A DNA stretch of 59,762 bases, counting the filler. It is 3 parts of 3 records of this genome, joined end to end, with 100 filler letters (N's around TTAATTAATTAA, not from the genome) between each part and the next. Parts side by side here need not be neighbours in the genome. Positions count along the whole stretch, not along the records: positions 45,908 to 59,762 come from SRR31156797_7965; 2 more parts are not named here. One strand, 5' to 3'. Each line of letters begins with the position of its first letter. Position 1 is the stretch's first letter. Position numbers and translations under genes: made by a program. Of the stretch, positions 23,532 through 59,762 are shown one piece after another. Below the pieces are notes generated by a model, which was given only the letters and a program-made list of their open reading frames with translations, did no database searches and was not told the DNA's origin.

Positions 23532-26500
23532 ATGAGAAACAAATTTTTTACCCTAACGCTATTGATGTTGTCAATGGTGTTCGTGGTGAATGCACAAAAA
23601 GATGGACTGACATCCATTAAAAAAGAGTACGAGCCTAATAAGTATAAAGGCGCAGATGCTGTGTCAGTTTCCTGGGCAACTCAAAGTTTAGCAAAAGGTG
23701 CTTATACCTACAATCCTGATGATAGCCCGCTAGGATCAGCTTATGATTCTGATACATATGCTGAACTAGGTTGGACAGATATCGTGGTCGCTGAAAGTGG
23801 CGGTGCTGGTGATATTGAAATTACCTACACATGGGATACTGATTCCTGGCCAGGTGAGGGTTCATTCCATTTGGAATCACCAACAGGTACAGCTGTTGTT
23901 ATTGGTGATGGAGAAACTGATGGGACTTATAGCAAAGTTTTAACTGACTTTGTAGGTGAAGAAGTTAACGGAACTTGGAAATTATGGATTGAGGATAGTT
24001 ACGGTGATGGTGGTCATAGTGCTGCTGATATCACATTCGTAGTTAAGACATTGGAAGTTAATGATATGTCTGCTATTGCAATAACTCCTACATTTGTTTT
24101 TGAGGGTGACGATGCTACTCCTACTATTACGGTAAGAAATGCTGGTATTAATTTACAAGATGCATTTGACGTTGATGTTGTTATTAATGATGGTGCTAGT
24201 GATGTATATACAAGTACTAAGTCAATTACAGGAGCTGGATTAACTACTGGTGACATGTTGACTGTAACAATGGATGACGTTTGGACAATGCCTGCAAATG
24301 GTGATTATACTATCACAGGTACTGTAACACTTGCTGGTGATGCTGATTTAAACAACAATACAATTGTTTCTACATTTATGGTAGGAACATGGGGTGATGC
24401 TTATACTGGTAATACAAGTGCTGGAGTATATAACGCAGTAACATTTGCTGATACAGCATTTGATGCTGTTGGTGTTATGGGTTCTGATCCATTTCCTATG
24501 GCTGAAGAATTTGATGGAACGAATGTTTACAGAATTTACAATGATTTCACTATTGGAACTGTGAACCCAGTTGGTGAGTATACATTACTAGACACTATTA
24601 CCAATGTAACAGGAACTCCTGTTGGATTAGCATATGATTGGATTAATGATATGATGTATGCTCTCGTATTAGATGGTAGTAGTAACCCACAATTGGGAAC
24701 TATTGACATGGGCACATTTGAATTTACTCTTATTGGAACTGGTACAACTACCCTTATTGCAATGGATATGGCAAATGATGGGTATTTATACGGACCATCT
24801 CTTACAGACGAGAGTTTATATAAAATTGACCCTGCTACTGGAGCAACTACTCTAGTAGGTCCATCAGGTCTTACAGATATCAATTTTGGACAAGATGTTT
24901 CTTATGATCCTGTTGAGAATAAATTATATTCTATAACAAGTGGTGATCAAAACTATTATGGTACATATAGCTTAGTAACTGGAGAATTTTCAATGATTCT
25001 TGATATGGGTTCTGACCAATATGCAACCTTTGTAGTTACTAAAGAAGCTCCTGCAATGAATGTTGTAACATTTAATGTGGTTGATGATAGTGCAAACCCA
25101 TTAGAAGGTGCAAAAGTTGATGTGATTAATTTACGTCTTTTAACTGATGCTGCCGGTGATGCAATGTGTTATATTCCTGATGGAGATGCTGATTATTCTG
25201 CATTCCTTGCTGGATATGAGGGTGTTACAGGTACTGTAACTGTTGCAGGTGATGTAACTGAATCAATCGTATTAAATGAAATTCCACCACAATTATCAGT
25301 AGATCCAACATCTTATGACTTTGGTGATGTTTATATCGATTATTCAGTAACACAAGCTTTCAATATTTCAAATATTGGAACTGGAGTCTTAACTGTGAAT
25401 GATATCTCTTTAACTGGAGCAGATATTGCTGAGTTTGAAATTATTAGTATTGGTGGTGAAGCAGATACTGCTTTATGGCCTGATACCTGGGACTTAGCTA
25501 CAGGTGAAGTTGCAGAGATTGTAGTTGAATTTACTCCTGCTACTGAAGCTCCAAAAACAGTTTCTTTAACAATTACTGATAATGCTACTAAAGCAACAAC
25601 AGAAGTTGAAATTACAGGTAATGCATTATTGAGACCTGCTGGTTCTACATGCGCTTTACCATATGAAATTACTCTTCCTTTAGTTGACTTTAATGGAAAT
25701 ACTGAAGATAAAGGTGATGATTATTCGAACACTTGGATTGATCCTAATAGTTACTATATCAACGGTAACGACATGGTTTTCGAATTTACTTTAGCAGAAA
25801 GAAGTGTAATTGAAGCAAATATGACATCAACCGGAACATGGATTGGTTTATTCATTGTTCAGGATTGTCCTACTGATACTTTACCTGCTCCAGTATTTGG
25901 AAGTGCAACTTCATCTGGTTCAGAAGTTAATTTAACAGACGTGGTGCTTGATGCAGGTACTTACTTTGCAATTGTTTCTTCATGGCCATCTCCACAAACT
26001 ATTGAATTTACATTAAATATGGACGCTACTCCAGTTTATGATGTAGTATTTAATGTTACAGATGGTACTGACCCAATTGAAGGTGCTGAAATTTTAATTA
26101 ATGAAGTTACATTAACTACAGCAGCTGATGGTAATGATACTATTGAGTTACCCGTTGGAACATATGATTATAAAGTTACATATACTGGTTTTGGACCACA
26201 ATTCGGAACAGTAGACGTTGTAGATGCAGCTCAAACTATTAGTGTTGTTATGGATGCTGCTTATGATGTTACATTCTCAGTTACTGATGGTACTGACCCA
26301 ATTGAAGGTGCTGCTGTATCTGTTAATGACTTTGAAATGGGTACTACTGATGCAACCGGTGCTTTAGTTGTTGCATTATCAGATGGTACGTATAACTATG
26401 ATGTAACTGCTACAGGTTATGCTGAAGCAGCTGGTTCAGTAACAGTTTCAGGCGCTATTCTTACAGAAGATGTTGTGATGGATACTGTTTATGAAGTTGC

Positions 26501-45907: not shown

Positions 45908-47712
45908 ACGCTGTGGCCGATGTTATGACCAAGCCCCAAAATATCTTCTGTTATTTCAAGGATTAATTTGTGTGGGGGTATTTTATGCTTATTTATGGCT
46001 TGCTCAATTTTGCCGGTAAAATTTTTTTCCATGAAACACAGGGGTGAAATATTAATTGATATTGTCAGGTCTGAATCGTATTTCATGACCAAAGCCTGAT
46101 AGTCACTCAACACTTTGTCAATCATGTAATCGGTAAATTCCGTTATCAGATTAAGCTGATTTATAAACGGAATAAACACATTGGGCGGCACGAACCCCAT
46201 TTCACAAGAAATCCATCGTGCTAACGCTTCCACACCCACAACTTTTTCAGTGGTGAAATCAACCTTCTCCTGATAATAGGGAATGATCTCTTTGTCTAAA
46301 ATGCCTTTGCCCAAATGCTGGCGCATGGCAAGCTCGTTTTTTACCCTCTCTTTCATTGACTCTTCAAACAGCGTTATTGATAAATCCTTATTTTCTCTGG
46401 CTGTCCGCATTGCTGTTGTGGTCTCTTCGTATAATGTCTCAAAGGATTTGTTTTGACTGTCGTATACGGTCAAGGATAAGTATATATCAAGCATCTGATT
46501 GTAACCGTTCTCTAAAATGTATTGTTTACTTTTACCTCTGACCTCCTCTAAGAGTAGTGCGATGTGCTGTTGCTCAACGTCTTCAATCCAGATCGAAAAT
46601 TCATTACTGCCGGTACGTGCCGGATAACTATTGTTTTTTTTACATTGGCGCAGGGATTCACCAAAGAGTCCCAATACCCTGTCACCCTGCTCATACCCCA
46701 AGGTCAGATTAATCAGTTTTAGCCCCATGATGTCCAGTTGGGCCAGATATCCGAATCTGCATCCATTATTTAACCTTTGATCAACGTATTCTTTCAAGCC
46801 GTTTCGATTGGGAAGTTGTGTAAGGTCATCATTGTAGGCAAGGTAGGTCAAACGATTATTTTTGATGGCGATCTTTTGTTCGGCCCTCTCAAGGGATGCA
46901 ATCATGGTGTTGTAACCGTCAATTAACATTTTGGTTTCATCATTATGATTGCCGGAATGGATTGACTGATAGCGGCCTTCAGTCACATTTTTCATTCCCT
47001 TGGCAATATCAAGTATGGGTTTCGTTGCTGATCGGATATATATAGTACCAACATAACCGGTAAAAATGACCAGTATAACGGTTACAAGTAATATCGTATA
47101 AAGAATCCAGGTTGCTTCATTTACAAAATCCAACTCATATGCCGTTGAAGCAACAATCCATTCCCAGTCAGGGTTATAACCAACATAGGAAATTTTTGTG
47201 CCGATTTTGTCAGAGTGAGGAAAACGCCATGCATAATAGGTATAACCGCCACCACTGAGTGCAATCTCTATCTGTTCCCTGACAATATAATGTTCAGGAT
47301 CATTAAAGTTGGTTACATTCCATACGTTTTGCCCCTCCAGGGTGGGATGCAGGACTTCAAGGCCTGCTTTATCATAAATGATAAAATATCCATGTTCACC
47401 CAAATCAATATTTCCATGTAGCTCTCTTGTGCCGTCGACCTTCATGGGGCCAAGTAAAATGGTCTTAATGGTTTCCTGTGCATTTGATTTAGAGATTAAT
47501 CCTGCCTTAACTTTATCATATTCCGAATGAATCAAGGCCAATGCCTGGATAACGCTGTTTTTAAGAACAACTTTACCTTTTTCGGCGAGTGCCTTTTTAG
47601 CGATTTGATAACTGGAAATGCCTATGAGGGATGTCGCGATTATTAATATGAGTAAATATATTGATATAAGCTTGCGGTTAAACGATTTCCTATATTCGTT
47701 TACAAGGTTCAC
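45908..47712 (-). CDS. 3'-truncated Cache-HAMP-degenerate GGDEF-EAL protein (probable phosphodiesterase)
   Basis: Cache motifs GYFIIYD...HPTLEG and WEWIV; DDLTQLPNR; GSNEF in place of GGDEF; VEALARW and LEITE. Confidence 0.82.
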
Positions 47713-47801
47713 GTGCCGCTCCTTATGGATACAGATAATTGCTTTGAATCTATATACTTACCATAATTTGGAACAGTTGGTATAGACTTTTTACGAGGCA
47801 A

Positions 47802-49040
47802 TCAATTTTCCATCTTAGCCATAGGAACAGTTATGGTAAAGAATGTGCCCTTATCCACTGTACTTGTACAACTGATTTCTCCATTCAGCGTTTTAGTGAC
47901 AAGGTTAAATACCAGGTGCATCCCGAGTCCGGTACCACCGGAGCCGCGTTTGGTGGTGAAAAAGGGATCAAATATTTTTTTCTGGTGCTCTTGTGTCATA
48001 CCGTTACCGTCATCTTCATAGTGGAGAATGATTGAATAATCATCGTTTTTAACGGTAATGGCAATCTGCCCCTTTTCTATATCTTCAAATCCGTGGAGAA
48101 GAGAATTCATGACAAGATTGGTCAATATCTGGGAGAACGCCCCTGGATAACTGTTTATCTCCAAATCTTTAGGCACATCCACGATTACAGTATGTTTGGT
48201 CTTTTTTATGCGTGGATAGAGACTGAATAAAATTTCATCAATATACTGTTTTATATTGAAAATTCGTTTTTCGTCATTGGACTGGTCAACCGCAATCCGT
48301 TTAAATCCCACCACCAGTTTCGCCGCACGCTTGAGATTGGAAAGGGTTACCTGGCAGGCCTCTTCACAATCTTCCATAAATGTTTCAAGATCCGTTTTGG
48401 TTGCTTCTCCGGCTGCGAACCGTTTTTTAAAGACTTTGGTTGAATCATTGAGATATGAGATGCCGGTTACCCCAATCCCAAGAGGGGTGTTAATTTCATG
48501 GGCAACGCCTGCCACAAGATCTCCAAGAGCAGCCATTTTTTCTGACTGCACAAGTTGTTTCTCAGTGCGTTTTCTGTCTTCTATCTCCTGCTGAAGCTTA
48601 ACAGTCTGTTCTTCCAGACTTTTCTGGTATGCTTCATTTTCAGCAATGAGTTTGGCCCGATCCAGTGCTTTTTCAACCGCCTGCAGCAGAACATCCAGAT
48701 TGAATAATGGTTTCACCAGATAATCCCAGGCGCCTAATCGAACCGCTTCAATGGCATCATCCAAAATCCCTGCGCCTGAAACAATCAGTATGGGAATTTT
48801 TTCGAATTTTTCCTTCACTGTGCGGACCACTTCAAATCCATTTATTTCAGGCATTTGCAGGTCACACAAAATGAGGTCAGGCTTATGTTCCCCGATCTTT
48901 TTTAGACCAATATGGCCATTCTCTGCCTGGATAACCTCATATCCGTTATCTTCAAGAATGTCCGTGAAATTATCGCGGATGAATTTTTCATCATCAATTG
49001 TGAGTATCAGCGGCGGGTTGTTTGATACTGTATCCGGCAT
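47802..49040 (-). CDS. Hybrid REC-histidine kinase
   Basis: REC motifs IDDE, CDLQMP and DYLVKP; kinase motifs AHEINTPLG, DDGNG and PFFTTKRGSGGTGLG. Confidence 0.92.
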   Translation of the reverse strand: MPDTVSNNPPLILTIDDEKFIRDNFTDILEDNGYEVIQAENGHIGLKKIGEHKPDLILCDLQMPEINGFEVVRTVKEKFEKIPILIVSGAGILDDAIEAVRLGAWDYLVKPLFNLDVLLQAVEKALDRAKLIAENEAYQKSLEEQTVKLQQEIEDRKRTEKQLVQSEKMAALGDLVAGVAHEINTPLGIGVTGISYLNDSTKVFKKRFAAGEATKTDLETFMEDCEEACQVTLSNLKRAAKLVVGFKRIAVDQSNDEKRIFNIKQYIDEILFSLYPRIKKTKHTVIVDVPKDLEINSYPGAFSQILTNLVMNSLLHGFEDIEKGQIAITVKNDDYSIILHYEDDGNGMTQEHQKKIFDPFFTTKRGSGGTGLGMHLVFNLVTKTLNGEISCTSTVDKGTFFTITVPMAKMEN

Positions 49041-49056
49041 CTTAGCCTCTCAAGTG

Positions 49057-50580
49057 TTAATCAACAAATTTATCTCTGATCACCAAAAACTTATCCAGAT
49101 TTTCAAGAAACAGCTCTGTTAACAGTGGATCAAAATGTTTACCCGCCTCTTCTTTGAAAAGTGAAATGATTTTATCAAGGGGCCAAGCCTTCTTATAACA
49201 GCGCTCACTTCCCAGGGCATCAAAGACATCGGCAATGGCGGTTATCCGACCATAAATATGGATATCAGTGCCTTTCAGGCCCTCCGGATAACCACTGCCA
49301 TCCCATTTTTCATGATGAGTCAAGGCAATTGTGGCACTGATATTCATTACAGCCAGAGACGATTGTTCGAGTATTTCGTACCCTCGTTTCGGATGAGTCT
49401 TCACAATATCCCATTCTTCGGGAGTCAATTTTCCCGGTTTGGTCAAAATTGCATCGGGAATTGCGATCTTACCAATATCGTGCATTGGCGAAGCTGTCTT
49501 TATTAATTCTGCTTCGGTTTTATTCAGCCCAACCAGCAAGGCAAGCAACTCTGAATAATGGGCCATCCGCTTCACATGGTTTCCAGTCTCCTTTGAACGG
49601 GATTCGACAACCTCACCCAACCGGTATACCATCTCCTTTTGACTGTCGGTTATTGTCTCATTGAGCTGAATGTTTTCCAAAGTTACGATCAGGTTCTCAG
49701 TAAATATGTTAAGCAGACGAATATCAAGACCAGACAGTGGCTGATTTATCTGAGCAAAAAACAGAACAATCTGATTGTTATTTGAGCAGTACATAACAAA
49801 TCTATCTTTTTCAAAAATATTTTTTTGCTCGGTAATTGCAGATAAAATTATATCCCGTTTACCATCTGGTAACTCAGCAGCATTAATGCAGCTTGATCCA
49901 AGAGGATTATCCGAGGAATACACCTCTAAACACTGCTCTAAAACGATATATCCTGTGACCTTGCAGGAAAAAATAGTGGTCTCTTCTATATTAAGAAGAT
50001 GGGTCAACTGCTCAACCGTAACGCGTATGAATTGGGCCAGCGCCCCCCTGGATGAAATTCCCCTTGAGGCAACAATGAGTTTTTCCAATCCCTTTCGACT
50101 TTTTTCCAGGGTAATGATATCACGGTAGGATCTTAACGTTGCATACATCAGGGTAAACAATTTGTTCGCGGTAAGCTCGGTTTTGGTCTTGTAGTCGTTG
50201 ATATCATAATTTTGAATGACCTCTCGCTCCGGTGCCTGCCCCGGCTGACCAGTCCTTAAAACAATCCGGGTGTTGATATTCTTGAGATCTTCCCGGATTT
50301 TTTTCACCAGCTTTAATCCTGCATGTTCAGACTCCATTACCACATCGAGTAAAACGATGGCTATATTGGGATGCTCAACGAGATATTCAAGGGCCTCTGC
50401 GGCGGAATAGGCATGGAATAATTTTAATTTCCTGTTATCAAAAGTGAAATTTTTGAGGGCCAGTGCTGTTACCTGATGAACTCCTTTTTCATCATCCACA
50501 ACCAGAATCTTCCATGGTGAATCCCTACCGTCATTTTTCAGGATATTGTCTTCTTCTTTTAGTATAAGTTCATCCATCAT
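49057..50580 (-). CDS. REC-DUF3369-HD-GYP cyclic dinucleotide phosphodiesterase
   Basis: Motifs LLDVVME, RTGQPGQAPE, ETGNHVKR, HDIGK, HHEKWDGSGYP and ADVFDAL. Confidence 0.9.
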   Translation of the reverse strand: MMDELILKEEDNILKNDGRDSPWKILVVDDEKGVHQVTALALKNFTFDNRKLKLFHAYSAAEALEYLVEHPNIAIVLLDVVMESEHAGLKLVKKIREDLKNINTRIVLRTGQPGQAPEREVIQNYDINDYKTKTELTANKLFTLMYATLRSYRDIITLEKSRKGLEKLIVASRGISSRGALAQFIRVTVEQLTHLLNIEETTIFSCKVTGYIVLEQCLEVYSSDNPLGSSCINAAELPDGKRDIILSAITEQKNIFEKDRFVMYCSNNNQIVLFFAQINQPLSGLDIRLLNIFTENLIVTLENIQLNETITDSQKEMVYRLGEVVESRSKETGNHVKRMAHYSELLALLVGLNKTEAELIKTASPMHDIGKIAIPDAILTKPGKLTPEEWDIVKTHPKRGYEILEQSSLAVMNISATIALTHHEKWDGSGYPEGLKGTDIHIYGRITAIADVFDALGSERCYKKAWPLDKIISLFKEEAGKHFDPLLTELFLENLDKFLVIRDKFVD

Positions 50581-50593
50581 AGTAAAGTTATCC

Positions 50594-51451
50594 TTAAACA
50601 GTGAAAAAGTTTAGTATTTCCTGTGCAATTTCATTTACCTCTGATTCTTTTTCTTTTATGTCCTCATCTTTCATGTCCAGCTGTGCCAAAGGTTCTTTCA
50701 GTATGGCTTTGCGATAATTGACAGTTTGTCCCTGCTCTGTTGCAATTGCCTCAGCGGCAAGTCTTGTGGCGATATGGAGGATGCAGCAGGAAAAAAAGTA
50801 AGGCTGCTCAATGTCAGGCAAGTGTTGATAGGCAACAGGAACAACAATTTCATCAGGCAGGTTCCAGGACTTGAGCAATGCCCCGCTGGCCTGCGCTACA
50901 GTAAAGCCGAGAACCTCTTTTTCCCGCTGCCAGTGGAATTGCCCTTTATTGGGAGCCCCTATGGCTGTTAAAGCAATATCCGGGGCATATTTCACAACTG
51001 CCAATGCCCCAATATTACTCAGTAGCCCTGCAACAAAAAGAGTTTCATCATCCTGTGATTTGTTCGGATTTAGGGCTTTGGCGAAGATCGCAGAATAAAC
51101 AGCCTTTTTCCAAAGGGTTTTCATTTCAATATAGCTACCGCCAACTGTTTGAATAATGGCAGCAGCGCTTGTCGCCAACGCTAAATTATACAGTTGAGAG
51201 GCTCCAATAAGGGAAATGGCTTCGGCAACGGAGGAAATTTTTTGTGGAAAATAATAGAGAGGACTGTTTACTATTTTCAATAATCTTGCTGTGAGTGCCG
51301 GATCTTTAGAGATCAGCTTTGCAAGGTCACCAATTGACGAAGCTGGATCTGCCACGAGCCGTTTAACCTGCATACAGATATCGGGCAGCGTTAACAAGGA
51401 CCCTGCATTCTTTATGATATCACTTATTTTAATTAAATAGGCCAAAGGCAT
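50594..51451 (-). CDS. HDOD domain protein
   Basis: Motifs TLPDI, DPALTARLLKIVNS, GLLSNIG (HD replaced) and WNLP. Confidence 0.88.
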   Translation of the reverse strand: MPLAYLIKISDIIKNAGSLLTLPDICMQVKRLVADPASSIGDLAKLISKDPALTARLLKIVNSPLYYFPQKISSVAEAISLIGASQLYNLALATSAAAIIQTVGGSYIEMKTLWKKAVYSAIFAKALNPNKSQDDETLFVAGLLSNIGALAVVKYAPDIALTAIGAPNKGQFHWQREKEVLGFTVAQASGALLKSWNLPDEIVVPVAYQHLPDIEQPYFFSCCILHIATRLAAEAIATEQGQTVNYRKAILKEPLAQLDMKDEDIKEKESEVNEIAQEILNFFTV

Positions 51452-52027
51452 TCTTTCATTTTACGATACATTAATAACAAAAAATACATTTAAAGTCTGT
51501 TTTTTAAATGTTTATACAACCTTGGGGTGGGACTTGTCCATCCTGAACCCTTTCATCAAAACAGTGGAAAAATCGCTCCAGCAATCCACCTGCATTACTT
51601 ATTTTTCCCAGCCCTTTATTCTTTTTCGCCTTGGATCATCATCTCTTCCGTTTGGCAAGGATCTTTTCTGCCGAGAACCAGGTCTTGATCGCCGGAATCT
51701 CAATCACTGATTCCATGGTGGCCGCCGGATAATCGCAAAGATAGGTCAGACGGCCAAAATACGTGGGGCAGTTCAATTTTCGTTGACGCCAAGCACCTCA
51801 CTGCCGGTGTCCATTCTCGCGATGTCTATGGGGTCTTGTCATATATGATGGATAAGTTGTAATGGTGACAATTGGTCATAAACGCGCTTTGAATTCTGTT
51901 TAAGGCAAAAATGTCATAGATCTTGGCGTTGAGGAACTTTTTGATATAAGTATGTCAAAAGTTTAAGATATAAACTTACTTTTTGTCAATCAAAGTATGA
52001 AAAAAATAGACGTCGGGAATCTGTCCC

Positions 52028-53098
52028 CTAACTTTGGGGTTTAAGGTTATCCGGATTTCGCCAGCACAGGGGGTCCGACGCCAGAACATCACCGGTAACC
52101 TGGAAGGCTGCGCCCCGGCACCCGTAACAAGTGTCATGCTTTTCACAGGTGCGGCAGAAGCCTTTGATGTTCTGCCGGTGATTTTTCAGCAGGCGAAGTT
52201 CCCGGGAATGGTCCAGAATGTCCTTAAGGCGGGTTTTGCGTATGTTTCCTATGGATTTTGTAATTCCCACACAGGGTTGGACGTTGCCGATGGAGGTGAC
52301 CGTGCAGGAAAATTGGTGCCGCATGCACTGGTTGCCCATGAGCGGCGGCTGGGGATCCCATTCAATGCCGTAGCGTTCCCGGTCAATGGCACATATTTTT
52401 TCGAACACCGCTTTGAGTTCCAGGGGAGTAAGTTCCAGGGCTGGATTCTTTTTTGCCTGGCCCTGGGGGGTAATGATTTCAAAATAGGGTGCCATGTTGT
52501 TGTCCCTGATCCAGGTCCACAGATCCGTCAATTCATCCTGGTTCTGGCGGCAGATAATGGTGCTTAACGCCAGGAACGCATCTTTGGCGGGATAGCCTGC
52601 CGCTTTAAGGTTGTCAAGGGCATTATGGATAATGTTAAACGCGCCTTTTTTGCCTGCAAGCACATCCTGCCTGGCTTCATCAAAGGAGTTCATTTTTAAG
52701 ACAACCCTTACGCCGCCTGCGTGAAGTTCCCGGGCAAAATCAGGGGTAATGCCGGTGCCGTTGGTAAACATTTCTATTTCTAAACAGTGGTGTTCTAAAA
52801 ATCTAATGACCTCCCGGATATGGGGGTAGATACTGGGTTCTCCGCCTAACAGGATAATCTTTCCGGCCCCAAGTGCTTTGGCCTGCAAAATGACCTCAAA
52901 GATTTCGTCAAGACTGAGTTCATTATCAAAATATGAATCATGGGGCACATAGCAGTAGCTGCATCGAAAATTGCACCGCAGGCTTAATTCAATCTCCATG
53001 GAAAGAAGCCTGTTTCCGGCTAGGGCATGATCAATTCTTTGTTTGGAAAATTCAAAGTTTCCGGCACAACCAATGTTGTGACTGGTACAGATATTCAT
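52028..53098 (-). CDS. Radical SAM protein with SPASM domain
   Basis: CNFRCSYC and GGEP; C-x6-C-x5-G-x4-C ... C-x2-C-x5-C-x2-C-x17-C. Confidence 0.9.
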   Translation of the reverse strand: MNICTSHNIGCAGNFEFSKQRIDHALAGNRLLSMEIELSLRCNFRCSYCYVPHDSYFDNELSLDEIFEVILQAKALGAGKIILLGGEPSIYPHIREVIRFLEHHCLEIEMFTNGTGITPDFARELHAGGVRVVLKMNSFDEARQDVLAGKKGAFNIIHNALDNLKAAGYPAKDAFLALSTIICRQNQDELTDLWTWIRDNNMAPYFEIITPQGQAKKNPALELTPLELKAVFEKICAIDRERYGIEWDPQPPLMGNQCMRHQFSCTVTSIGNVQPCVGITKSIGNIRKTRLKDILDHSRELRLLKNHRQNIKGFCRTCEKHDTCYGCRGAAFQVTGDVLASDPLCWRNPDNLKPQS

Positions 53099-56000
53099 GG
53101 GGACACCTTTGCGACAAACCAGACGGTTTCAGGATTATTACCGGATACTTTGGTATACTCCATCCTGAAATCCGTCTCGTTGATAAAATCTGTGATGGCT
53201 TGCACAGACAGGTAATGGGGAACCACCCCTTTTAATTTCAATTTAAGCGCTTCAATGGGCCAAACCAGTGTCGGTTTTCCGGCCGGGGTGATAATGGCCC
53301 TGATGATAAGGGCACCGCCGGGAACCATAGTTGCCCTGATTTTATTTAACGTTTGTCTGAATTCATCGGGTGTTAAAAAATGGGCCATATCAAGCATCAG
53401 GGTCATGTGGATAGGTTTTGAAACAGCGGGAATATCCGGGGCGTGGCCCAGGTCAATGCGTCCCTGACCTGAAATGGCAATGGTACTGATCCGCCGGCTT
53501 TCGGGGTCCGGCTCCAGGCCGAATACGCGGGCATGGGGAAACCGTTCAAGAAGAAAGCAGGCCGGCACCCCGAGCCCCGTGCCGATGTCCATGATCCGGG
53601 AAACGTTTTCCTTGTCTGCCAAAATGTCGGGCAGCTCCTTGAACATGGGGTCTAACTTCAGTTTAAACCGGGTGAACATTCTGGGATATGCCTCTACCGT
53701 GCGGTATCGGGCAAGAATCCGGGATGTCACAGGTGTTCTCGCATCCTGACCTCGATCCTTCCGGGACACTGACGATCCCACGGTTTGTAAAATAAAATGT
53801 CGGCGCAGCAGGGGCGGCAGAATCAAAAACGTGCCCCCAAGGCAAAAGCCGATGCCCAGAAGGGAAGCTATGCCTGCACTTTGCAAAAGCGAATGCTCGG
53901 CCAGGCACATCACCCCGAATCCGATCATGGTGGAAATACCTGCCATGAATACGGCCAGGCGTATCAATTCAACCGATGGATGGAATTCGTCACGGTAACG
54001 CTGGTAGGCGCGCACAAAGAACAACGAGAAGTCAATGCCGATGCCGAAGACGATGATGGAGAGCATCAGCGAAGGGATGTCCAGGTTGTGTCCTAAAAGC
54101 TTCATGGTGCCCAGGGTGCCGATAAAGGCAAAAAAGACCGGCAGCATGGTGATGATGGTGAGTCTGATGTCCAGAAAAAAGATGAACAGCAGGATCAAAA
54201 CCGCCCCTGCAATAATGAAAAACATTTTGGCAAAGGTTGAATGCAAAAGGGTGCCCAGGGTGGTGGAAAAAAGCTGGGGTTCAAACACGGTGGCAACACT
54301 GCTGAACGATTCATAGAAACTTTTTTCATCCACAGCCGGGTTACGCATCAGGCTTGTGGTCCAGGTCCAGTGACCACCGGCTGCCTTGGATTGGGAAATA
54401 CCCATCATGGGATAAAGGGCCTGGGGAATTGCCACAGGTCCCTCCGGCAGGTCGGTGGGGACAAGCAGGCGTAAAAACAAGTCAAAGGCATCCCGGGTGA
54501 AGCCGAGCGGCGCTGCCGCCCGGCTCAGATTCTGTTTGAGGGCATTGACCCGTTCTTTATTCCAGAATTGCAGCCAGGCCTCATAGTTCTCTTGTTTTTT
54601 GGCCTTTCCCGGGAATATCATTGAAAGCGTTGTGCCCGAGGCCTGCACTCCTTGGGTCTGAACCGCAGAAACCCTGTCTGCCAGCTGGTCGCTTAAATCC
54701 TGAAGCTCCGGTACTGATACGGCCGTCAGCATGAGATGGGATTTGCCTGTAAACCCTTTGCCCCAGGTCTCATAGAATTTAGTATCCGCATCCCGGGTTT
54801 CCCGGCTTACCGTACTCATGGCAGACAGATCCACCTGAAAGGCCGGCCAGGCAAACCACACCAGGGCCAGTGTCACTGCCAGGGCAAACCAGACACCGCC
54901 GTTGCCGGGAATAATCAGGGCGTTAACCAGTCGTTGCAGGGGAAGCGCTCTGGGTTTTGCCGGGTAAAGCACAGGCACGATCCTTGGGAACAGGGAATGA
55001 ATAAAAATAAAGGAGAAGCCCATGCCAAGGGCCGTAAATTTCCCAAGTTCTTCAAGGATTTTAAAATCACTCATTCCTAAAGAGAGAAACGCGCATACCG
55101 TGGTCAGGGTGGCGATCAGACCCACGGCCCGCACTTCAGTGGATGCATGTCTGCCCGATATTTTCCGGGGCTGGTCCAGGAACAGCAGATAGGTAATGCC
55201 GTGGTCGATGGTGATGGAGATGATGGCACCGCCAAATCCAAGGACAATAAGAGAGATACTGTCATATAACAGGGAATATGTAAAAAGGCCCGCAATAGTG
55301 CCGAACATGGCAGGAACCAGGGCTAAAAGCCCGATCCACGGCCGGGGGAAGGCCAGACACAGCAAAAGAATGATGGCTGCCGTGGCAAAGAGAATGGCGG
55401 TTTGCACATCATGCTTGATGATTTTTTCATTGTCATAGGCTGCTCTGAATGCCCCTACTGAGGTGAGGACGGCATGCTCACCCGGCTGGGAAAATTGTGT
55501 TTGGGCCTGGGCTTGGATGTCATGAATCAGCTCCATGGCCTGGGTGGAAAATTTTGAATCCGTGCTCGAGCCTTTGGGGGTGGCCATGATCAGGCAGTGC
55601 TGTGAATCCCGGGATAGAAGTTTTCCTTTGTAAATGTTGAAGTCATCAACCGGTGCAAGGGATCTCAGCCTTGCCAGCACGATGTTTTTCAACCCCAAGG
55701 GGTCAACGGCTATGAATTCGGATGTGCCTATTTCATCAAGACTCAGCAGCCGCGTATAGATCTGTGCTAGTGTTTCCCGGATAGCATCCGGCGTGAGCCG
55801 GGGCGCAACCTGGGTTTCAAGCTGGATGCGGGTGAATTGAAAGGGCAGGGTCTTTATTACCAAGGTCATCAGTTCCGGCATGATCCCCTGGTAATGATCC
55901 ATGCCCACATTGCTGAACAGGCCGGATGCCCCAAGTTTTTTTTCTACCATGGCGGCAAATTTTACCAGCCGTTCCGGATTCCGGGTGCCAAGGCTTGCGC

Positions 56001-56214
56001 TGATAACGACCTGGTCCTGGATGGGATGGTGGTCAAAAAAATAAAGAGCATCATGAATCACCGGGTTGTGTGCCGGAAGCGATGCCGTGATATCGGTTTG
56101 AATATGAAGCCTTTGGAAACTGACAAATAGCATGAATGCCGCAGCAAGGATCGTGATGATCAAAAGACTGACGTTCAGCTGTTTTTTTTGTTTTTTTGAA
56201 TTTACCATATACAC
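53095..56214 (-). CDS. MMPL/RND-family exporter fused to a C-terminal class I SAM methyltransferase
   Basis: Two MMPL TM bundles (ISITIDHG; GIGIDFSLF); C-terminal MDIGTGLG...GLEPD. The start may be 56208. Confidence 0.85.
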   Translation of the reverse strand: MYMVNSKKQKKQLNVSLLIITILAAAFMLFVSFQRLHIQTDITASLPAHNPVIHDALYFFDHHPIQDQVVISASLGTRNPERLVKFAAMVEKKLGASGLFSNVGMDHYQGIMPELMTLVIKTLPFQFTRIQLETQVAPRLTPDAIRETLAQIYTRLLSLDEIGTSEFIAVDPLGLKNIVLARLRSLAPVDDFNIYKGKLLSRDSQHCLIMATPKGSSTDSKFSTQAMELIHDIQAQAQTQFSQPGEHAVLTSVGAFRAAYDNEKIIKHDVQTAILFATAAIILLLCLAFPRPWIGLLALVPAMFGTIAGLFTYSLLYDSISLIVLGFGGAIISITIDHGITYLLFLDQPRKISGRHASTEVRAVGLIATLTTVCAFLSLGMSDFKILEELGKFTALGMGFSFIFIHSLFPRIVPVLYPAKPRALPLQRLVNALIIPGNGGVWFALAVTLALVWFAWPAFQVDLSAMSTVSRETRDADTKFYETWGKGFTGKSHLMLTAVSVPELQDLSDQLADRVSAVQTQGVQASGTTLSMIFPGKAKKQENYEAWLQFWNKERVNALKQNLSRAAAPLGFTRDAFDLFLRLLVPTDLPEGPVAIPQALYPMMGISQSKAAGGHWTWTTSLMRNPAVDEKSFYESFSSVATVFEPQLFSTTLGTLLHSTFAKMFFIIAGAVLILLFIFFLDIRLTIITMLPVFFAFIGTLGTMKLLGHNLDIPSLMLSIIVFGIGIDFSLFFVRAYQRYRDEFHPSVELIRLAVFMAGISTMIGFGVMCLAEHSLLQSAGIASLLGIGFCLGGTFLILPPLLRRHFILQTVGSSVSRKDRGQDARTPVTSRILARYRTVEAYPRMFTRFKLKLDPMFKELPDILADKENVSRIMDIGTGLGVPACFLLERFPHARVFGLEPDPESRRISTIAISGQGRIDLGHAPDIPAVSKPIHMTLMLDMAHFLTPDEFRQTLNKIRATMVPGGALIIRAIITPAGKPTLVWPIEALKLKLKGVVPHYLSVQAITDFINETDFRMEYTKVSGNNPETVWFVAKVSP

Positions 56215-56915
56215 AGACCAAGCCCTGCGAGAATCGCTAAATGACCGACAATAACCAATAGGCGGTGGGCATGAAAAAATTCGTTGATCAGTTGGATGAA
56301 TTTAAGACCGCCAAAACAGCGCCGGAACCTGTCCAGGCCGCGGCAGGCATCATTGTCTGTTTCCGCATTGCTCTGGAAGGCAAAAAAAGGCGTTATTCCC
56401 AAATAGTCGTCACAAAGGTTTTTGAGCATTACGTCATAGGGCATTCCGCGCCAGGGTTGGCTTGCGATTTTTTTCCCAAAAGCGCGGTTGGCTGCATAGG
56501 CATGGGTCAACGCTTGATACCTGATTTTTTTTACCCCTGGATTTTTGGTTTTTGAACTGCCCTTGATCAGACATCCGAAAAACAACAAATTCCAGGTGCT
56601 GCTGGTTGACATATGTTTAACGGCTTCTGTTAAGGCTTTTGGGGAATACCGGTGAAACACCACGTCATCCTCAAACACAACCCAGGATTGTGCTCCGGCG
56701 TCAATGGCTTTTTCCATGCACAGAAGATGGGATGCAAAAATTCCCCGGCAGGGGTCGTCGTGATCTTTGTCCACCAGGACAAATTCCACCCGATCCAAAA
56801 TGCCCATGCGTGAAAATTCAAGCCTGGTCCGTTCCCGGCGGTCTGTGCGATCCCGAAGGGATATGCAGTACAGTTTGTCAAAAAAGGCCCAGGGGAGGGC
56901 ATATTCCGGTGTCAT
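56202..56915 (-). CDS. Glycosyltransferase family 25-like protein
   Basis: Motifs YCISLRDRTDRR, GIFASH, VFEDDV and THAY; C-terminal hydrophobic tail. Confidence 0.75.
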   Translation of the reverse strand: MTPEYALPWAFFDKLYCISLRDRTDRRERTRLEFSRMGILDRVEFVLVDKDHDDPCRGIFASHLLCMEKAIDAGAQSWVVFEDDVVFHRYSPKALTEAVKHMSTSSTWNLLFFGCLIKGSSKTKNPGVKKIRYQALTHAYAANRAFGKKIASQPWRGMPYDVMLKNLCDDYLGITPFFAFQSNAETDNDACRGLDRFRRCFGGLKFIQLINEFFHAHRLLVIVGHLAILAGLGLCIW

Positions 56916-57517
56916 GGCGTATCATTCGCTTTTTTTGAAACGTCCCTGGGTTGATTTCTGGATACAAGGGCAAGTAGGTTGCTTTTGTGATTTAGTACGA
57001 TAAACCCCATGCACACAATAACCCCGGTGATTCCCATAAAATTGGTACCCGATATCCGGGCAAGGCCCATGCTGATAATGGCCACAAGGACCATGGAGCC
57101 TGCAAAGGCTTGCCGGAAAAAAAGATACCCGGCACACCACCCGGCAAGGGACAGTGCCGTAAATACAGGGGTGAGAAACAGGGAAAAACCAATGAAATGG
57201 GCAACGCCTTTGCCCCCTTTAAATTTGTGAAAACATGGGAACCGGTTCCCAAGCAGCAGAAAAAATCCCACCCATAGGGTTGCAGGCACGGACAGCAATC
57301 GGGATGCCGCCGCTGAAATCAAAAACGCCTTGCCCACATCGGTCATGAGAACAAATCCGGCCCATTTCAGCCCCAGGATTCTGTAAACATTGGTTGTACC
57401 GGCATTTTTGCTGAACAGGGTCCGGGGATCTTTTTTTGTTTTTACCTGCAGCACAAGGATGGATGCGTTTAATGAGCCTGCGGCATAGGCAATCAGGCAT
57501 AAAGCGGTGAATATCAT
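56912..57517 (-). CDS. PlsY-like glycerol-3-phosphate acyltransferase
   Basis: Motifs DPR...SKNAGTTNVYR, DVGK, FKGGKGVA and HKSNL. ATG at 57517 overlaps the upstream stop (ATGA). Confidence 0.85.
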   Translation of the reverse strand: MIFTALCLIAYAAGSLNASILVLQVKTKKDPRTLFSKNAGTTNVYRILGLKWAGFVLMTDVGKAFLISAAASRLLSVPATLWVGFFLLLGNRFPCFHKFKGGKGVAHFIGFSLFLTPVFTALSLAGWCAGYLFFRQAFAGSMVLVAIISMGLARISGTNFMGITGVIVCMGFIVLNHKSNLLALVSRNQPRDVSKKANDTP

Positions 57518-58398
57518 TGGAGACCCTCCCGGATCCACACCGGAGGGGTGATGGTGCCGCCGCTGACATCCCGCATCATTACCCCTGACACGGCTTCACA
57601 CAGCTCGCCTTGGTCATCGATAATCCATATGTCAAACCCCAGGGTCCCGTGGGTTTGATATTGGGGGATAACCCGGGCCGTATAATTTTTATGTTCAACC
57701 GTGGGTTTGTAAATAACCCGTTTTTCAAACCCAATTGGAAAGGCCACAATACCGAAAAAACGCTGGCTCCAGACACATCCGGCATGAAAGGCGCCGTCAA
57801 GGGGAAAACCCGATCCCAGTATGGTTTTACACGAATCTTTCGGATCATCCGGCATCGCTTTAAGCATTACGCATGCCCCGGATCGGGAAAGCCGCAATTC
57901 ACCTTTAATGGAGTGAAAGGCAGGCCCGAATGGAACCAGTTCCCGGTATATGGAATCGGCGTCCACCGTAAACACGGGCGCGCTGCATTCATGCATATGG
58001 GCAGAAGACAGATTGAAGGGCAGGTCCGGGGGCGGTTCGTTTGTTCTGGCGTTAAAGGTGGCCGTACAATGCTCTTTGATTCGTGTTATGGCGCCTTTTT
58101 TTGTGGAAAACCGGGTGGCCAGGGAGAGCGACATTTGCGTATCGTTCATGCGGCGGATATTGCACAGCGCTTCAATGGTGTTTTGACCGGGCTCAAGCAC
58201 AAGAAATTTATTGAACCGTGCATCGGTCATATGCCGCAGGGCAATACCAGAGGCAAGAAGATTGTCTTCTTTGAGTGCTCCGGCCAGGACTTTCAACGCC
58301 TCCACGGCCGGAAACACCACCTTGCCTGCAAAACAATGGTCCATGAAGTGGGGATATACGGTTATGGTTAAGGCAACCTGGGTAACGGATCTGTCCAT
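57514..58398 (-). CDS. Stand-alone PKS-type (double hot-dog) dehydratase
   Basis: DHCFAGKVVFP (HxxxGxxxxP), FGPAF and LDGAFH (DxxxH). Confidence 0.8.
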   Translation of the reverse strand: MDRSVTQVALTITVYPHFMDHCFAGKVVFPAVEALKVLAGALKEDNLLASGIALRHMTDARFNKFLVLEPGQNTIEALCNIRRMNDTQMSLSLATRFSTKKGAITRIKEHCTATFNARTNEPPPDLPFNLSSAHMHECSAPVFTVDADSIYRELVPFGPAFHSIKGELRLSRSGACVMLKAMPDDPKDSCKTILGSGFPLDGAFHAGCVWSQRFFGIVAFPIGFEKRVIYKPTVEHKNYTARVIPQYQTHGTLGFDIWIIDDQGELCEAVSGVMMRDVSGGTITPPVWIREGLQ

Positions 58399-58399
58399 A

Positions 58400-59446
58400 T
58401 CAGGTTCTGCTTGGCGGCTCTACAAATTTGGGGCTCAGGTTTTTCCCTTTTTCATACCCCATCACCCATACGGCCAGATAGGTATCCACATAATCCAGCC
58501 AGGCCTTGAAGGTTTCAGGATCAGTGGCGTGTCTGAAAAGTCTTGCCGTAACAACGGCACTGCCGGCCGCGTAGTGGCGGCAGTCCACACAGTCCGTATC
58601 CGGAACACAGCACGCAGCATTTCTGTCCCAGGTCAGATCCGCCCGGTATTGTCTGAATGTTTTACCCAGGCCGACATCTTCATGGGGATTCATTCTCGGA
58701 TAAGAGCATTGAAACAGATCATGCAGGCCCAGCTCATGGGTATGGGCAAGGATGTTATAGTGGGAGAAGAGCATATGTTCGGGATAGGTCTCAAGCATCT
58801 CCAGCATGACATCCCGGGTTCTAGCCAGTGTCTGCCGGGTGTGCCGCAGGTCGCCATTATATCCCACCGGCGCGGAAAACATATTAAAGGTGAAAGGGCA
58901 GCCGTTTTCCGCAAGGATGGGTGCCACATCCCGTATCTCATCAATGTTGCTGCTGGTAAAGGTATAGACAAACACAGCCCTGGGATCGTCTTTGTAATTT
59001 TTGATCTGTTTTTCAAGCATGTGATCGGCCCTGCGGACGGCCTGGCTTGTCCGGTCATTGCCCCACACGGAGATGTGAATCCTGTATCCCACGCTTTCGG
59101 GTATGAATTTTAACCCATTGGATGCGATGGCACCCAAAGGAATTTGCCGGTAACAGGTCTGCAAAAGCTCGGGAACCAGGGCAGGCTCCGCCCCTGCCAG
59201 CACAACAAAGGTGATGCCCCGCGCCTTTTCTTTGACCATCAGGGTCTGCCATGCGTCAGCGTCGTTATTCTCGGAGACAAACTGTTTATCTCCTTCATAG
59301 AAATAACAGCCTTCACACCGGATATTACAGCGGTTGGTCATATCATAGGTAGATTCCCTCAGGAAAAAGTATTTTTTTACCCGCTGCCATCGGCTTCGAA
59401 TGACCGGGTCGGACAGAATATCTGAGAATTTCCAATGTGTTTGCAT
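58400..59446 (-). CDS. Radical SAM protein with atypical C-terminal Cys cluster
   Basis: CNIRCEGC, GAEP and SNG; C-terminal CCVPDTDCVDC. Confidence 0.88.
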   Translation of the reverse strand: MQTHWKFSDILSDPVIRSRWQRVKKYFFLRESTYDMTNRCNIRCEGCYFYEGDKQFVSENNDADAWQTLMVKEKARGITFVVLAGAEPALVPELLQTCYRQIPLGAIASNGLKFIPESVGYRIHISVWGNDRTSQAVRRADHMLEKQIKNYKDDPRAVFVYTFTSSNIDEIRDVAPILAENGCPFTFNMFSAPVGYNGDLRHTRQTLARTRDVMLEMLETYPEHMLFSHYNILAHTHELGLHDLFQCSYPRMNPHEDVGLGKTFRQYRADLTWDRNAACCVPDTDCVDCRHYAAGSAVVTARLFRHATDPETFKAWLDYVDTYLAVWVMGYEKGKNLSPKFVEPPSRT

Positions 59447-59454
59447 AAAGGGAT

Positions 59455-59715
59455 TTAACGTTTGTTGTTAATGTATTCGGCAATGAGCCGGACGTTTGTC
59501 AGTTTGGGGTAGTCATCCTCGTCAATGCGGATGCCGTATTCATCCTGGATCACCAGGGCCACAGTGGCAAGGTCCATACTGTCAATCCCAACTTCATCCA
59601 CTAAGTCCATCTCAGGCTCAAAGGTTTCGGGCGTCACATCCTCAATCATGAGTTCATCAATGATAATCCGGGCCACATTGATAATGACGTCGTCAATGGT
59701 TTTTACTTTGTTCAT
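59455..59715 (-). CDS. Acyl carrier protein
   Basis: Acidic 86-aa protein with GIDSMDL phosphopantetheinylation motif and EYGIRI; SD GGGAG upstream. Confidence 0.93.
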   Translation of the reverse strand: MNKVKTIDDVIINVARIIIDELMIEDVTPETFEPEMDLVDEVGIDSMDLATVALVIQDEYGIRIDEDDYPKLTNVRLIAEYINNKR

Positions 59716-59762
59716 TTTTTGATTTTTCTCCCTTTTTATATGAAAGTTCCAATAAGTTACTG

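Follow-up and report, generated by a model that had tools for sequence, protein, structure and literature searches.

The locus examined here raises the question of what is made by a gene block in which an acyl carrier protein (ACP) and two radical S-adenosylmethionine (SAM) enzymes are coupled to genes for lipid synthesis and export, and whether the block suffices for that task. It occupies positions 52028 to 59715, on the minus strand, of a 59,762-nt stretch (the window) that consists of three contigs joined by runs of N (1-22746, 22847-45807, and 45908-59762, with GC contents of 0.44, 0.35, and 0.47, respectively). Gene content and order assign the seven genes to the tail of a type II cluster of approximately 25 to 30 genes of the aryl-polyene-lipid (APEL)/flexirubin-like kind. 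The reading moderately favored here is that the block is the tail of a dedicated type II fatty acid synthase (FAS)/polyketide synthase (PKS) pathway of anaerobes, leading to a specialized envelope glycero(glyco)lipid built on the APEL plan. In such a pathway, oxygen-independent radical enzymes would probably reshape the fatty chain before its attachment to a membrane lipid.

Conservation of the seven-gene block

The seven co-oriented open reading frames (ORFs) reported in the initial annotation were all confirmed, as were their positions, the gaps of 8 and 1 nt, the ATGA overlaps at 57514-57517, 56912-56915, and 53095-53098, and the overlap at 56202-56214. The first gene encodes an ACP of 86 aa (59455-59715) that carries a DSM motif with Ser46, scores above the PF00550 cutoff, and is dedicated to rSAM1. 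It is followed by rSAM1, an uncharacterized radical SAM enzyme of 348 aa with a CxxxCxxC motif and five C-terminal cysteines (58400-59446); by DH, a stand-alone dehydratase of the PKS type (double hot-dog) of 294 aa in which the His21/Asp201 dyad is kept (57514-58398); and by PlsY, a divergent acyl-phosphate:glycerol-3-phosphate acyltransferase of 201 aa from its ATG (56912-57517; PF02660). The remaining genes encode a GT25 glycosyltransferase of 237 aa, identified by Pfam, with an EDD motif and a C-terminal membrane helix (56202-56915); an MMPL/RND lipid exporter fused to a class I SAM methyltransferase, recognized by Pfam and motifs (1037 or 1039 aa; 53095-56208 or 53095-56214); and rSAM2, a radical SAM/SPASM enzyme of 356 aa matching both Radical_SAM and SPASM in Pfam (52028-53098). 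GT25 and MMPL overlap by 7 nt from the ATG start or 13 nt from the GTG start. Pfam cutoffs were passed by ACP, PlsY, GT25, MMPL, and rSAM2. Scores fell just below them for rSAM1 (23.9 versus 29.5 bits), for DH with the PS-DH model (23.4 versus 23.7), and for the C-terminal methyltransferase (26.6 versus 27), but the motifs are intact in all three: CxxxCxxC at 40-47 in rSAM1, HxxxGxxxxP at 21 plus D201 in DH, and DxGxGxG at 874 in the methyltransferase.

The seven genes are colinear in three Desulfobacter loci (L001, L004, and L005), and the first six are colinear in two more (L003 and L006). The arrangement is therefore not due to chance, and the view of the block as a genuine operon, conserved and serving an ACP-based lipid pathway in anaerobes, held up. 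The third contig was assigned to a Desulfobacter host because rSAM1 is 91 to 95% identical, and the block colinear, in three Desulfobacter genomes. In total, 2062 relatives of rSAM1 were found at E ≤ 1e-10 among 4247 candidates, and the loci described below (L001 to L080) are the best 80 of at least 594 true relatives, drawn from at least 600 genome-scan matches. Within these best 80, the top five matches came from four Desulfobacter records and one Desulfobacterales metagenome-assembled genome (MAG), at 91 to 95% identity, and the rest, at about 70%, mostly from Desulfobacterota and Spirochaetota. Cultured carriers include D. curvatus DSM 3379 and D. vibrioformis DSM 8776. Two genome samples that share their center genome and contain many MAGs were also surveyed. 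In the phylum sample, rSAM1 and a paralogue, RS1b, occurred in 8/121 genomes, with a single weaker match in one further genome; in the class sample, rSAM1 occurred in 59/251 genomes.

The block within a larger, split cluster

Because the cluster contig (the third, 13,855 nt) stops at position 59762, everything upstream of the ACP gene is missing, and no ketosynthase (KS) was found on the contig (45908-59762). The contig agrees without mismatch with one record of run X1, possibly its source. The initial annotation had read the seven genes as a candidate pathway and placed the KS beyond 59762, elsewhere in the genome, or in the primary FAS. In relatives, the genes are one block among approximately 25 to 30, and a KS encoded outside the block proved correct.

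Clustering of the ORFs of the 80 loci gave a recurring layout. A divergent arm encodes an ApeP-like dehydratase, FabG, LolA, a lipoprotein, and a B12-radical SAM enzyme (B12b). The main arm encodes an ACP, a 720-aa fusion of KS and chain-length factor (KS-CLF), another B12-radical SAM enzyme (B12a), an ApeI-like dehydratase, an ACP, rSAM1, and RS1b, then two KSs, a thioesterase, and DH, and optionally PlsY, GT25, MMPL, and a deacetylase. KS415 and KS421 were both present in 42/52 loci. The ApeI-like and ApeP-like dehydratases, LolA, the thioesterase, and a PlsC-type acyltransferase were identified by Pfam, and GT25, GT2, and a polysaccharide deacetylase all belong to the cluster. The Desulfobacter version is a streamlined variant in which this layout is rearranged and split over two or three loci. 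Upstream of the block, locus A encodes the KS-CLF fusion, a PEMT-like methyltransferase, RS1b, a thioesterase, a DAK2-DegV-B12-radical SAM fusion, a second ACP, and the ApeI-like dehydratase, with DarG, DarH, ABC, and ACP genes on its divergent side. Locus B holds an AMP ligase, three KSs, a PlsC-like acyltransferase, a thioesterase, and GT2 and LpxL-like genes, with FlxJ and DarB nearby, and locus C holds the genes of the divergent arm (ApeP-like dehydratase, FabG, LolA, lipoprotein, and B12b). In a near-complete relative (G160), loci A and B lie within 40 kb of each other. Between the ApeI-like gene and the ACP gene of rSAM1, differing unrelated inserts were seen at L001:2578-9387, in L005, and in G160, which suggests an insertion hot spot; the insert in L001 includes a sensor kinase gene and, by eye, an aldehyde-oxidoreductase-like gene.

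The Cys-His-His triad is kept in the N-terminal half of KS-CLF and in KS411, KS415, and KS421, and the C-terminal half of the fusion, which lacks it, was read as the CLF. The ketosynthases are dedicated to the pathway. With a dedicated KS-CLF and further intact KSs at the same or a second locus, primary FAS was rejected as the supplier of the chain. Of the recurring ORF families, none was seen to be an enoyl reductase, and the chains are therefore probably unsaturated.

rSAM1, its carrier protein, and RS1b

The constant partners of rSAM1 are its ACP and RS1b. The ACP gene lies no more than 600 nt upstream of rSAM1 in 75/76 loci, and the pair stayed intact through the Desulfobacter rearrangement. 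RS1b, encoded outside the window and 26% identical to rSAM1, lies directly downstream of it in 61/67 loci and, in Desulfobacter, 8 to 15 kb upstream. Median identity across the loci was 71% for the ACP and 70% for rSAM1, with values of 39 to 46% for DH, PlsY, GT25, and MMPL. Two full copies of rSAM1 were observed in one genome (G333, contigs C65 and C45).

Besides the SAM-motif cysteines (Cys 40/44/47), rSAM1 has conserved cysteines at 247, 279, 280, 286, and 289; two of these, C286 and C289, never vary among 90 relatives, both near and distant. RS1b likewise keeps five C-terminal cysteines in addition to the SAM motif. The C-terminal cysteines of rSAM1 probably bind an auxiliary Fe-S cluster. 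With its SAM motif, these cysteines, and a SPASM/twitch-like fold in the predicted model, rSAM1 has the features of the SPASM/twitch branch; the Pfam SPASM model gave no match on it. No curated NCBIfam cutoff for a radical SAM family was reached by rSAM1, RS1b, or rSAM2, a PDB sequence search with rSAM1 gave only weak SkfB and PqqE matches, and a search of the ESM Atlas returned solely unnamed radical SAM clusters. The model of rSAM1, built from a deeper alignment, had a predicted local distance difference test (pLDDT) score of 91, the earlier model having reached 75 in the cysteine regions. Its closest folds were BlsE (7vob; Z 17.9), SkfB (6efn; Z 17.5), and anSME (4k36; Z 16.8), with root mean square deviations of 3.1 to 3.7 Å over 229 to 262 residues and identities of 10 to 23%; viperin and ChlB were also among the best. 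BlsE, SkfB, and anSME share with rSAM1 the fold and the C-terminal cysteines for an auxiliary cluster, but at this low identity rSAM1 differs from them in its CC-x5-C-x2-C tail, its paralogous partner, and its dedicated ACP. To our knowledge, none of the three acts on acyl-ACP.

The conserved pairing with the ACP, together with the carrier, thioesterase, and dehydratase genes that travel with distant relatives of rSAM1, leads us to infer that the target of rSAM1 and RS1b is an acyl group bound to a carrier. Relatives of 26 to 30% identity on plasmids of aerobes adjoin ACP, TauD, and nonribosomal peptide synthetase (NRPS) genes, others adjoin genes for a PaaA-like ferritin and a MaoC/PaaI hot-dog protein, and one (P0224) is a fusion with a thioesterase. 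Auxiliary clusters often take the electron in net oxidations. With the auxiliary cluster as electron acceptor, the best guess for the chemistry of rSAM1 and RS1b is hydrogen abstraction and a net two-electron oxidation leading to oxygen-independent desaturation or ring closure, a guess in which our confidence stops just short of even.

The closest folds might also suit a role in which rSAM1 and RS1b (and rSAM2) modify the ACP itself or another protein of the pathway, or oxidize a sugar head group then moved by GT25. BlsE, SkfB, anSME, viperin, and ChlB are the best structural matches of rSAM1, the best models for rSAM2 are heme and peptide SPASM enzymes, the 71% conservation of the ACP fits a substrate as well as a carrier, and GT25, GT2, and the deacetylase are at hand in the cluster. 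However, rSAM1 and RS1b lie between the ACP and the KS pair, they are retained where GT25 and MMPL are absent (these being present in 16 and 17 of 40 loci, respectively), and the distant relatives keep company with thioesterase or dehydratase and carrier genes. A protein or sugar target is considered decidedly unlikely, and action on the carrier-bound chain is preferred.

Distant homologues of rSAM1 were observed on 12 plasmids, 11 of them from Alteromonas and one from Enterobacter hormaechei. On one of the Alteromonas plasmids (L089:11165-13520), the homologue forms a three-gene unit with genes for a PaaA-like ferritin and a MaoC dehydratase, and a Tn3 transposase lies next to it; neighbors were read on this plasmid only. 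A Burkholderia stagnalis plasmid (L090:3979-14073) has a ferritin-radical SAM-PaaI unit divergent to a cluster encoding an A-domain, an ACP, a chlorinating enzyme, and an acyl-homoserine lactone synthase. In a Methylomagnum plasmid (L091:8362-17154), the distant homologue is part of an ACP-TauD-radical SAM-NRPS operon, and in Tistrella pTM3 (L092:7280-13921) it lies among MaoC/PaaI, Rieske-like (by eye), PaaA-like, and AurF-like genes.

PlsY and a putative fused fatty acid kinase

The DAK2-DegV protein encoded at locus A was found to track rSAM1 closely. It comprises Dak2, FakA-like_M, and DegV domains, and its best PDB matches were FakA and DegV/FakB; with the kinase, middle, and lipid-binding DegV domains all present, it is a putative FakA/FakB-type fatty acid kinase (the Fak fusion). 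In the phylum sample it occurred in precisely the 8/121 genomes that have rSAM1 and RS1b. Among the 251 class genomes, 54 had both rSAM1 and Fak, 5 had rSAM1 only, 3 had Fak only, and 189 had neither (Fisher p 4e-45, with genomes treated as independent and kinship uncorrected). The fusion was also present in 5/5 further genomes chosen for rSAM1, four from Spirochaetota and one from Smithellaceae. A thioesterase gene lies immediately 5' of the Fak gene in G001-G003, G160, G190, G195, and G356, but not in G005. The Fak fusion is like FakA/FakB of Firmicutes in its DAK2 kinase domain with NVFPVxDxDTG, its middle and DegV domains, and the PlsY acceptor; it is unlike them in being a single polypeptide, fused in Desulfobacter to a B12-radical SAM enzyme, and in being embedded behind a thioesterase in a biosynthetic cluster of Gram-negative anaerobes. 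This triple fusion, of about 1120 aa, was seen at L083:377-3736 (G001) and in G002, G003, G160, and G367, while kinase and B12 enzyme are separate genes outside Desulfobacter-type genomes. No paper treating most of fatty acid kinase, DegV, radical SAM, gene clusters, and ketosynthase together was found in a search that left subscription papers mostly outside.

The identification of PlsY stood: the gene is intact, PF02660 matches, and the glycerol-3-phosphate pocket is kept. Residues S36, R46, K103, S141, H177, and N180 show 90% or higher conservation across 18 sequences, and the GGKG motif is present. By position and motif, with no alignment to the Aquifex protein, they correspond to the pocket residues Ser35/Arg45/Lys104/Ser142/His177/Asn180. 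The pocket and the use of acyl-phosphate by PlsY are described in the available text of PMC5700162. The score was below the TIGR00023 equivalog cutoff (86.6 versus 137.2). In Desulfobacter G001-G003 and in G004, no PlsY other than that of the block was found, nor was PlsX; all four genomes encode an acyltransferase of about 890 aa that we read as PlsB-like. Some PlsY is present in all 8 rSAM1-positive phylum genomes. Among the 32 rSAM1-positive class genomes without the block-type PlsY, five were examined, and 5/5 had another PlsY and 0/5 had PlsX. Acyl-phosphate for PlsY comes from PlsX or from Fak, the latter route being that of Firmicutes, according to the accessible part of PMC12594616. 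The negative result for PlsX, the cluster PlsY as the sole copy found in G001-G004, and the link to Fak together suggest a route from thioesterase to kinase to acyl-phosphate to PlsY, which is plausible: the co-occurrence and the intact sites are observed, and flux along the route is presumed.

The broken-up cluster, with its differing unrelated inserts upstream of the ACP gene, and the status of the block's PlsY as the only one found in those genomes could also fit a decaying remnant, or a PlsY that merely serves housekeeping phospholipid synthesis. Yet every frame is open, with catalytic residues kept, other loci still hold the partner genes, and the genomes, in which PlsX was not found, encode a PlsB-like protein. 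A metatranscriptome (X17) also hints weakly that the block is expressed: its contigs, from a relative with about 90% similarity, cover all seven genes but hardly any of 46000-51966, a region that DNA runs X2 and X3 do cover. Decay or a pure housekeeping role is considered extremely unlikely, and a functional, dedicated pathway is retained.

Optional genes and rSAM2

Among the 40 loci with at least 9.5 kb of downstream sequence, DH was present in 35, PlsY in 15, GT25 in 16, MMPL in 17, and rSAM2 in 5. PlsY and the GT25-MMPL pair, initially taken as parts of the pathway, are thus optional. The cluster PlsY was likewise rejected as an obligatory partner, the block-type PlsY being present in 27/59 rSAM1-positive class genomes. 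GT25 was paired with MMPL in all 17 loci holding it. Strong MMPL orthologues were found in 6 of the 121 phylum genomes, all rSAM1-positive, and the best plasmid matches of MMPL were the MMPLs of flexirubin/aryl-polyene-type clusters (25% identity). DH homologues have a C-terminal tail of about 220 aa in 13/42 ORFs, and 3/3 tested tails matched PF01648 (4'-phosphopantetheinyl transferase [PPTase]); such fusions were seen at L029:17673-19175, L050:15355-16878, L026:19336-20838, and 10 more loci. A PDB sequence search with DH returned nothing.

rSAM2 is accessory. It was found in 3/121 genomes, each rSAM1-positive (3 of the 8 positives), and was not found in G004. Accordingly, the two radical SAM enzymes of the window, taken at first as the pathway's pair, were rejected as its core; RS1b is the constant partner instead. 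In other lineages (L075, L080, and G092), a B12-radical SAM enzyme (B12c) adjoins rSAM2. In G002, a second copy of the last 59 rSAM2 codons lies about 1.5 kb downstream (G002:C25:21224-21400).

Relation to known clusters

In the APEL, two ACP-made chains are carried on glycerol-phosphate-GalNAc and exported by ApeM/L/N (10.1101/2020.12.19.423268). The ape clusters of Xenorhabdus doucetiae and E. coli CFT073 (10.1101/2020.12.19.423268; PMC8253772, in its available part) are like the present cluster in having several ACPs, KS and CLF, ApeI/ApeP-like dehydratases, FabG, a thioesterase, a glycerol-phosphate acyltransferase, GT2 with a lipid-A-type acyltransferase, an MMPL/RND exporter, and a LolA-like protein. 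They differ from it in that the present cluster has five or six radical SAM enzymes, a PKS-type DH (often fused to PPTase), PlsY with the fused fatty acid kinase, GT25, the KS-CLF fusion, and anaerobic hosts. GT2 and the lipid-A-type acyltransferase are encoded by adjacent genes in the Desulfobacter-type cluster and form one protein in ApeJ. The ape core list (KS, CLF, ACP, ApeI/ApeP dehydratases, ketoreductase, and ApeM-type transporter) was found across loci A to C of the relatives, the block itself holding ACP and MMPL only. Third among the PDB matches of the N-terminal half of KS-CLF was 6qsp, which we take to be ApeO.

Likeness to flexirubin-type clusters of Bacteroidota was also evident: 15/21 proteins of a Persicobacter cluster (L118, classed as flexirubin/APE type from its annotation) have homologues in these loci, and DarB, DarG, DarH, and FlxJ genes lie beside the Desulfobacter loci. 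DarG scored 173 versus a cutoff of 70, DarH 436 versus 300, DarB 538 versus 450 for its subfamily, and the FlxJ-like methyltransferase 483 versus 560; the gene at L096:1570-2481, which no model matched, is presumably DarA. Unlike the Bacteroidota clusters, the present one has no ammonia-lyase, C45 peptidase, or AMP ligase of the same type, its MMPL lacks an internal acyltransferase domain, and the Dar genes are inconstant. The best model for the AMP ligase was 4-coumarate-CoA ligase, far below the cutoff (114 versus 335), and the ligase is unrelated to that of Persicobacter. DarB, found in 4/8 rSAM1-positive and 6 rSAM1-negative genomes, was rejected as a core gene.

The product might accordingly be a flexirubin-type ester, with the radical-modified chain on a dialkylresorcinol made by DarB, DarG, and DarH and with PlsY and Fak in a side role such as recycling. 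DarG and DarH are divergent to KS-CLF at locus A, DarB and the FlxJ-like gene lie by locus B, Dar/FlxJ genes also flank the Fak gene in G190 and G356, and MMPL resembles those of Bacteroidota clusters. Against such an ester, the distribution of DarB just given compares with 8/8 rSAM1-positive genomes for the Fak fusion; DarB lies within 10 kb in 1/80 loci and DarG, DarH, and FlxJ in 0/80 (the best 80 of at least 594); and no aromatic ammonia-lyase was found near the cluster in G003 or G160, or anywhere in G195. No paper joining dialkylresorcinol, DarA, and flexirubin with Desulfo- hosts was found, subscription papers again lying mostly outside the search. A resorcinol ester is judged unlikely, and a glycerolipid remains the preferred product.

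The initial annotation had called the combination undescribed. However, clusters of FASII and radical SAM genes common to Kuenenia, Desulfotalea psychrophila, Geobacter, and Pelobacter, with unknown product, already appear in the available text of Rattray et al. 2009 (PMC2649909), and antiSMASH "ladderane" gene clusters of unknown function are called in Desulfobacterota MAGs in the available part of PMC9902471. The present cluster is a variant of this widespread kind of radical SAM lipid cluster noted in 2009. As far as that text goes, both have several FabF paralogues and ACPs, B12-radical SAM enzymes, a desaturase-like gene, an MMPL-like membrane protein, an acyl-CoA ligase, a glycosyltransferase, and a polysaccharide deacetylase, whereas Desulfobacter appears to be without B12a. 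TIGR04072 scores fell into two tiers, 560 to 636 bits in 9 genomes (1 rSAM1-positive) versus about 355 to 400 for copies inside rSAM1 clusters, so that the 2009 clusters may be a sister type.

These parallels extend to a ladderane-type (cyclobutane) pathway equivalent to the candidate cluster of anammox bacteria. Canonical versions of the cluster have an ACP, a FabZ-like protein, KS and CLF, a B12-radical SAM enzyme passing TIGR04072 (392 versus 360), and sometimes a phytoene-desaturase-like gene, the set of anammox Cluster I, which resembles their upstream module in the accessible text of PMC10139942 and 10.64898/2026.05.19.726425. Unlike Cluster I, G001-G003 gave no TIGR04072-type B12 enzyme beside KS/CLF: B12a was not found there, with positive controls in G004 and G005, whose type of cluster has it. 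Desulforhopalus sp. IMCC35007 is another carrier with B12a. The desaturase-like gene was found in 0/5 Desulfobacter-type genomes, in a search without positive control, and lies within 10 kb in 4/80 loci (the best 80 of at least 594). No ladderanes were detected in Desulfotalea psychrophila, as given in the available text of PMC2649909. A ladderane product is considered very unlikely for this cluster, and an envelope glycerolipid is preferred here as well. The Desulfobacter marker 10-methyl-16:0 was also considered as the product and dropped, no support being found in the one listing examined for it.

The proposed pathway

The initial annotation put forward a putative order of dehydration, radical modification, acylation, glycosylation, methylation, and export. 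On the favored reading, KSs, FabG, and dehydratases would lengthen chains on dedicated ACPs, as the genes and KS triads suggest, and rSAM1 and RS1b would modify the chain on the ACP of rSAM1, a partnership indicated by synteny. The thioesterase would then release the acid, which the fused FakA-FakB kinase would convert to acyl-phosphate for transfer by PlsY to glycerol-3-phosphate. By analogy with the APEL, PlsC-like, GT2/LpxL (a split ApeJ-like pair), GT25, and methyltransferases may finish the lipid, and MMPL with LolA may export it.

Several observations weigh against this scheme. In fold, rSAM1 comes closest to a nucleoside-sugar lyase and to maturases of peptides and proteins, which tie in Z and are only 10 to 23% identical to it, so the fold gives no pointer to acyl chemistry. 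The Fak fusion scores far below the FakA equivalog cutoff (59 versus 975 bits) and could instead activate imported or recycled acid, and its association with rSAM1 carries the uncorrected kinship stated above. The block-type PlsY, limited to 27/59 rSAM1-positive class genomes, occurs in 12/192 rSAM1-negative ones as well. PlsY without a PlsX match was also found in seven genomes that have neither rSAM1 nor the Fak fusion (G010, G025, G034, G041, G051, G065, and G077), and that state therefore does not require Fak; in these seven, PlsY scores as canonical, and either acyl-phosphate would come from another source or the genomes are incomplete. DarB, DarG, DarH, and FlxJ by the Desulfobacter loci point to resorcinol as the acceptor, in place of glycerol or alongside it. 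For the host of the third contig, loci B and C are taken from its relatives, and the hint of expression comes from one study of a relative, from contigs that may include DNA. Finally, no product, enzyme assay, or lipid analysis for the cluster was found in a literature search that was thin on subscription papers.

Other features of the window

Downstream of the block, at 47802-51451, lie HDOD, response-regulator/HD-GYP-type, and hybrid kinase genes with a GC content of 0.42 to 0.44 (0.49 to 0.52 in the operon). Such genes also trail the operon in L005 and partly in L001; they do not do so in any distant locus and are therefore probably unrelated neighbors. A promoter and terminator scan of 51400-52100 gave signal at chance level. 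The three contigs are unrelated. By eye, contig 1-22746 looks gammaproteobacterial (U32 peptidase at 6856-7869), and contig 22847-45807 looks like Bacteroidota, with an 1806-aa protein carrying a type IX secretion sorting domain (23532-28952).

Implications for sulfate-reducing bacteria

What this analysis adds is a full reconstruction of the cluster for cultured Desulfobacter, together with a quantified tie between rSAM1 and the fused fatty acid kinase. The cluster is common in sediment sulfate reducers and is present in cultured strains, which makes it growable and testable, in contrast to the situation in anammox bacteria. Its product could be an unrecognized membrane lipid and biomarker, and the thioesterase-kinase-PlsY link directs the search to a glycerophospholipid with an unusual sn-1 chain. 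In the available text of PMC13459092, ladderanes and Jaw5 are the only ketoacyl lipids named as proposed to be radical-SAM-modified. It is tentatively possible that rSAM1 and RS1b found an uncharacterized radical SAM family making oxygen-free rings or double bonds on an ACP-bound chain that is handed via thioesterase and kinase to PlsY, giving a new class of glycerolipid. If true, radical SAM tailoring of ketoacyl lipids, proposed so far for ladderanes and Jaw5, would gain a third case, and cultured Desulfobacter would represent a naturally occurring variant without the ladderane-like B12 enzyme. A new class of membrane glycerolipid would then exist in roughly a quarter of Desulfobacteria (59/251 sampled) and in some Spirochaetota.

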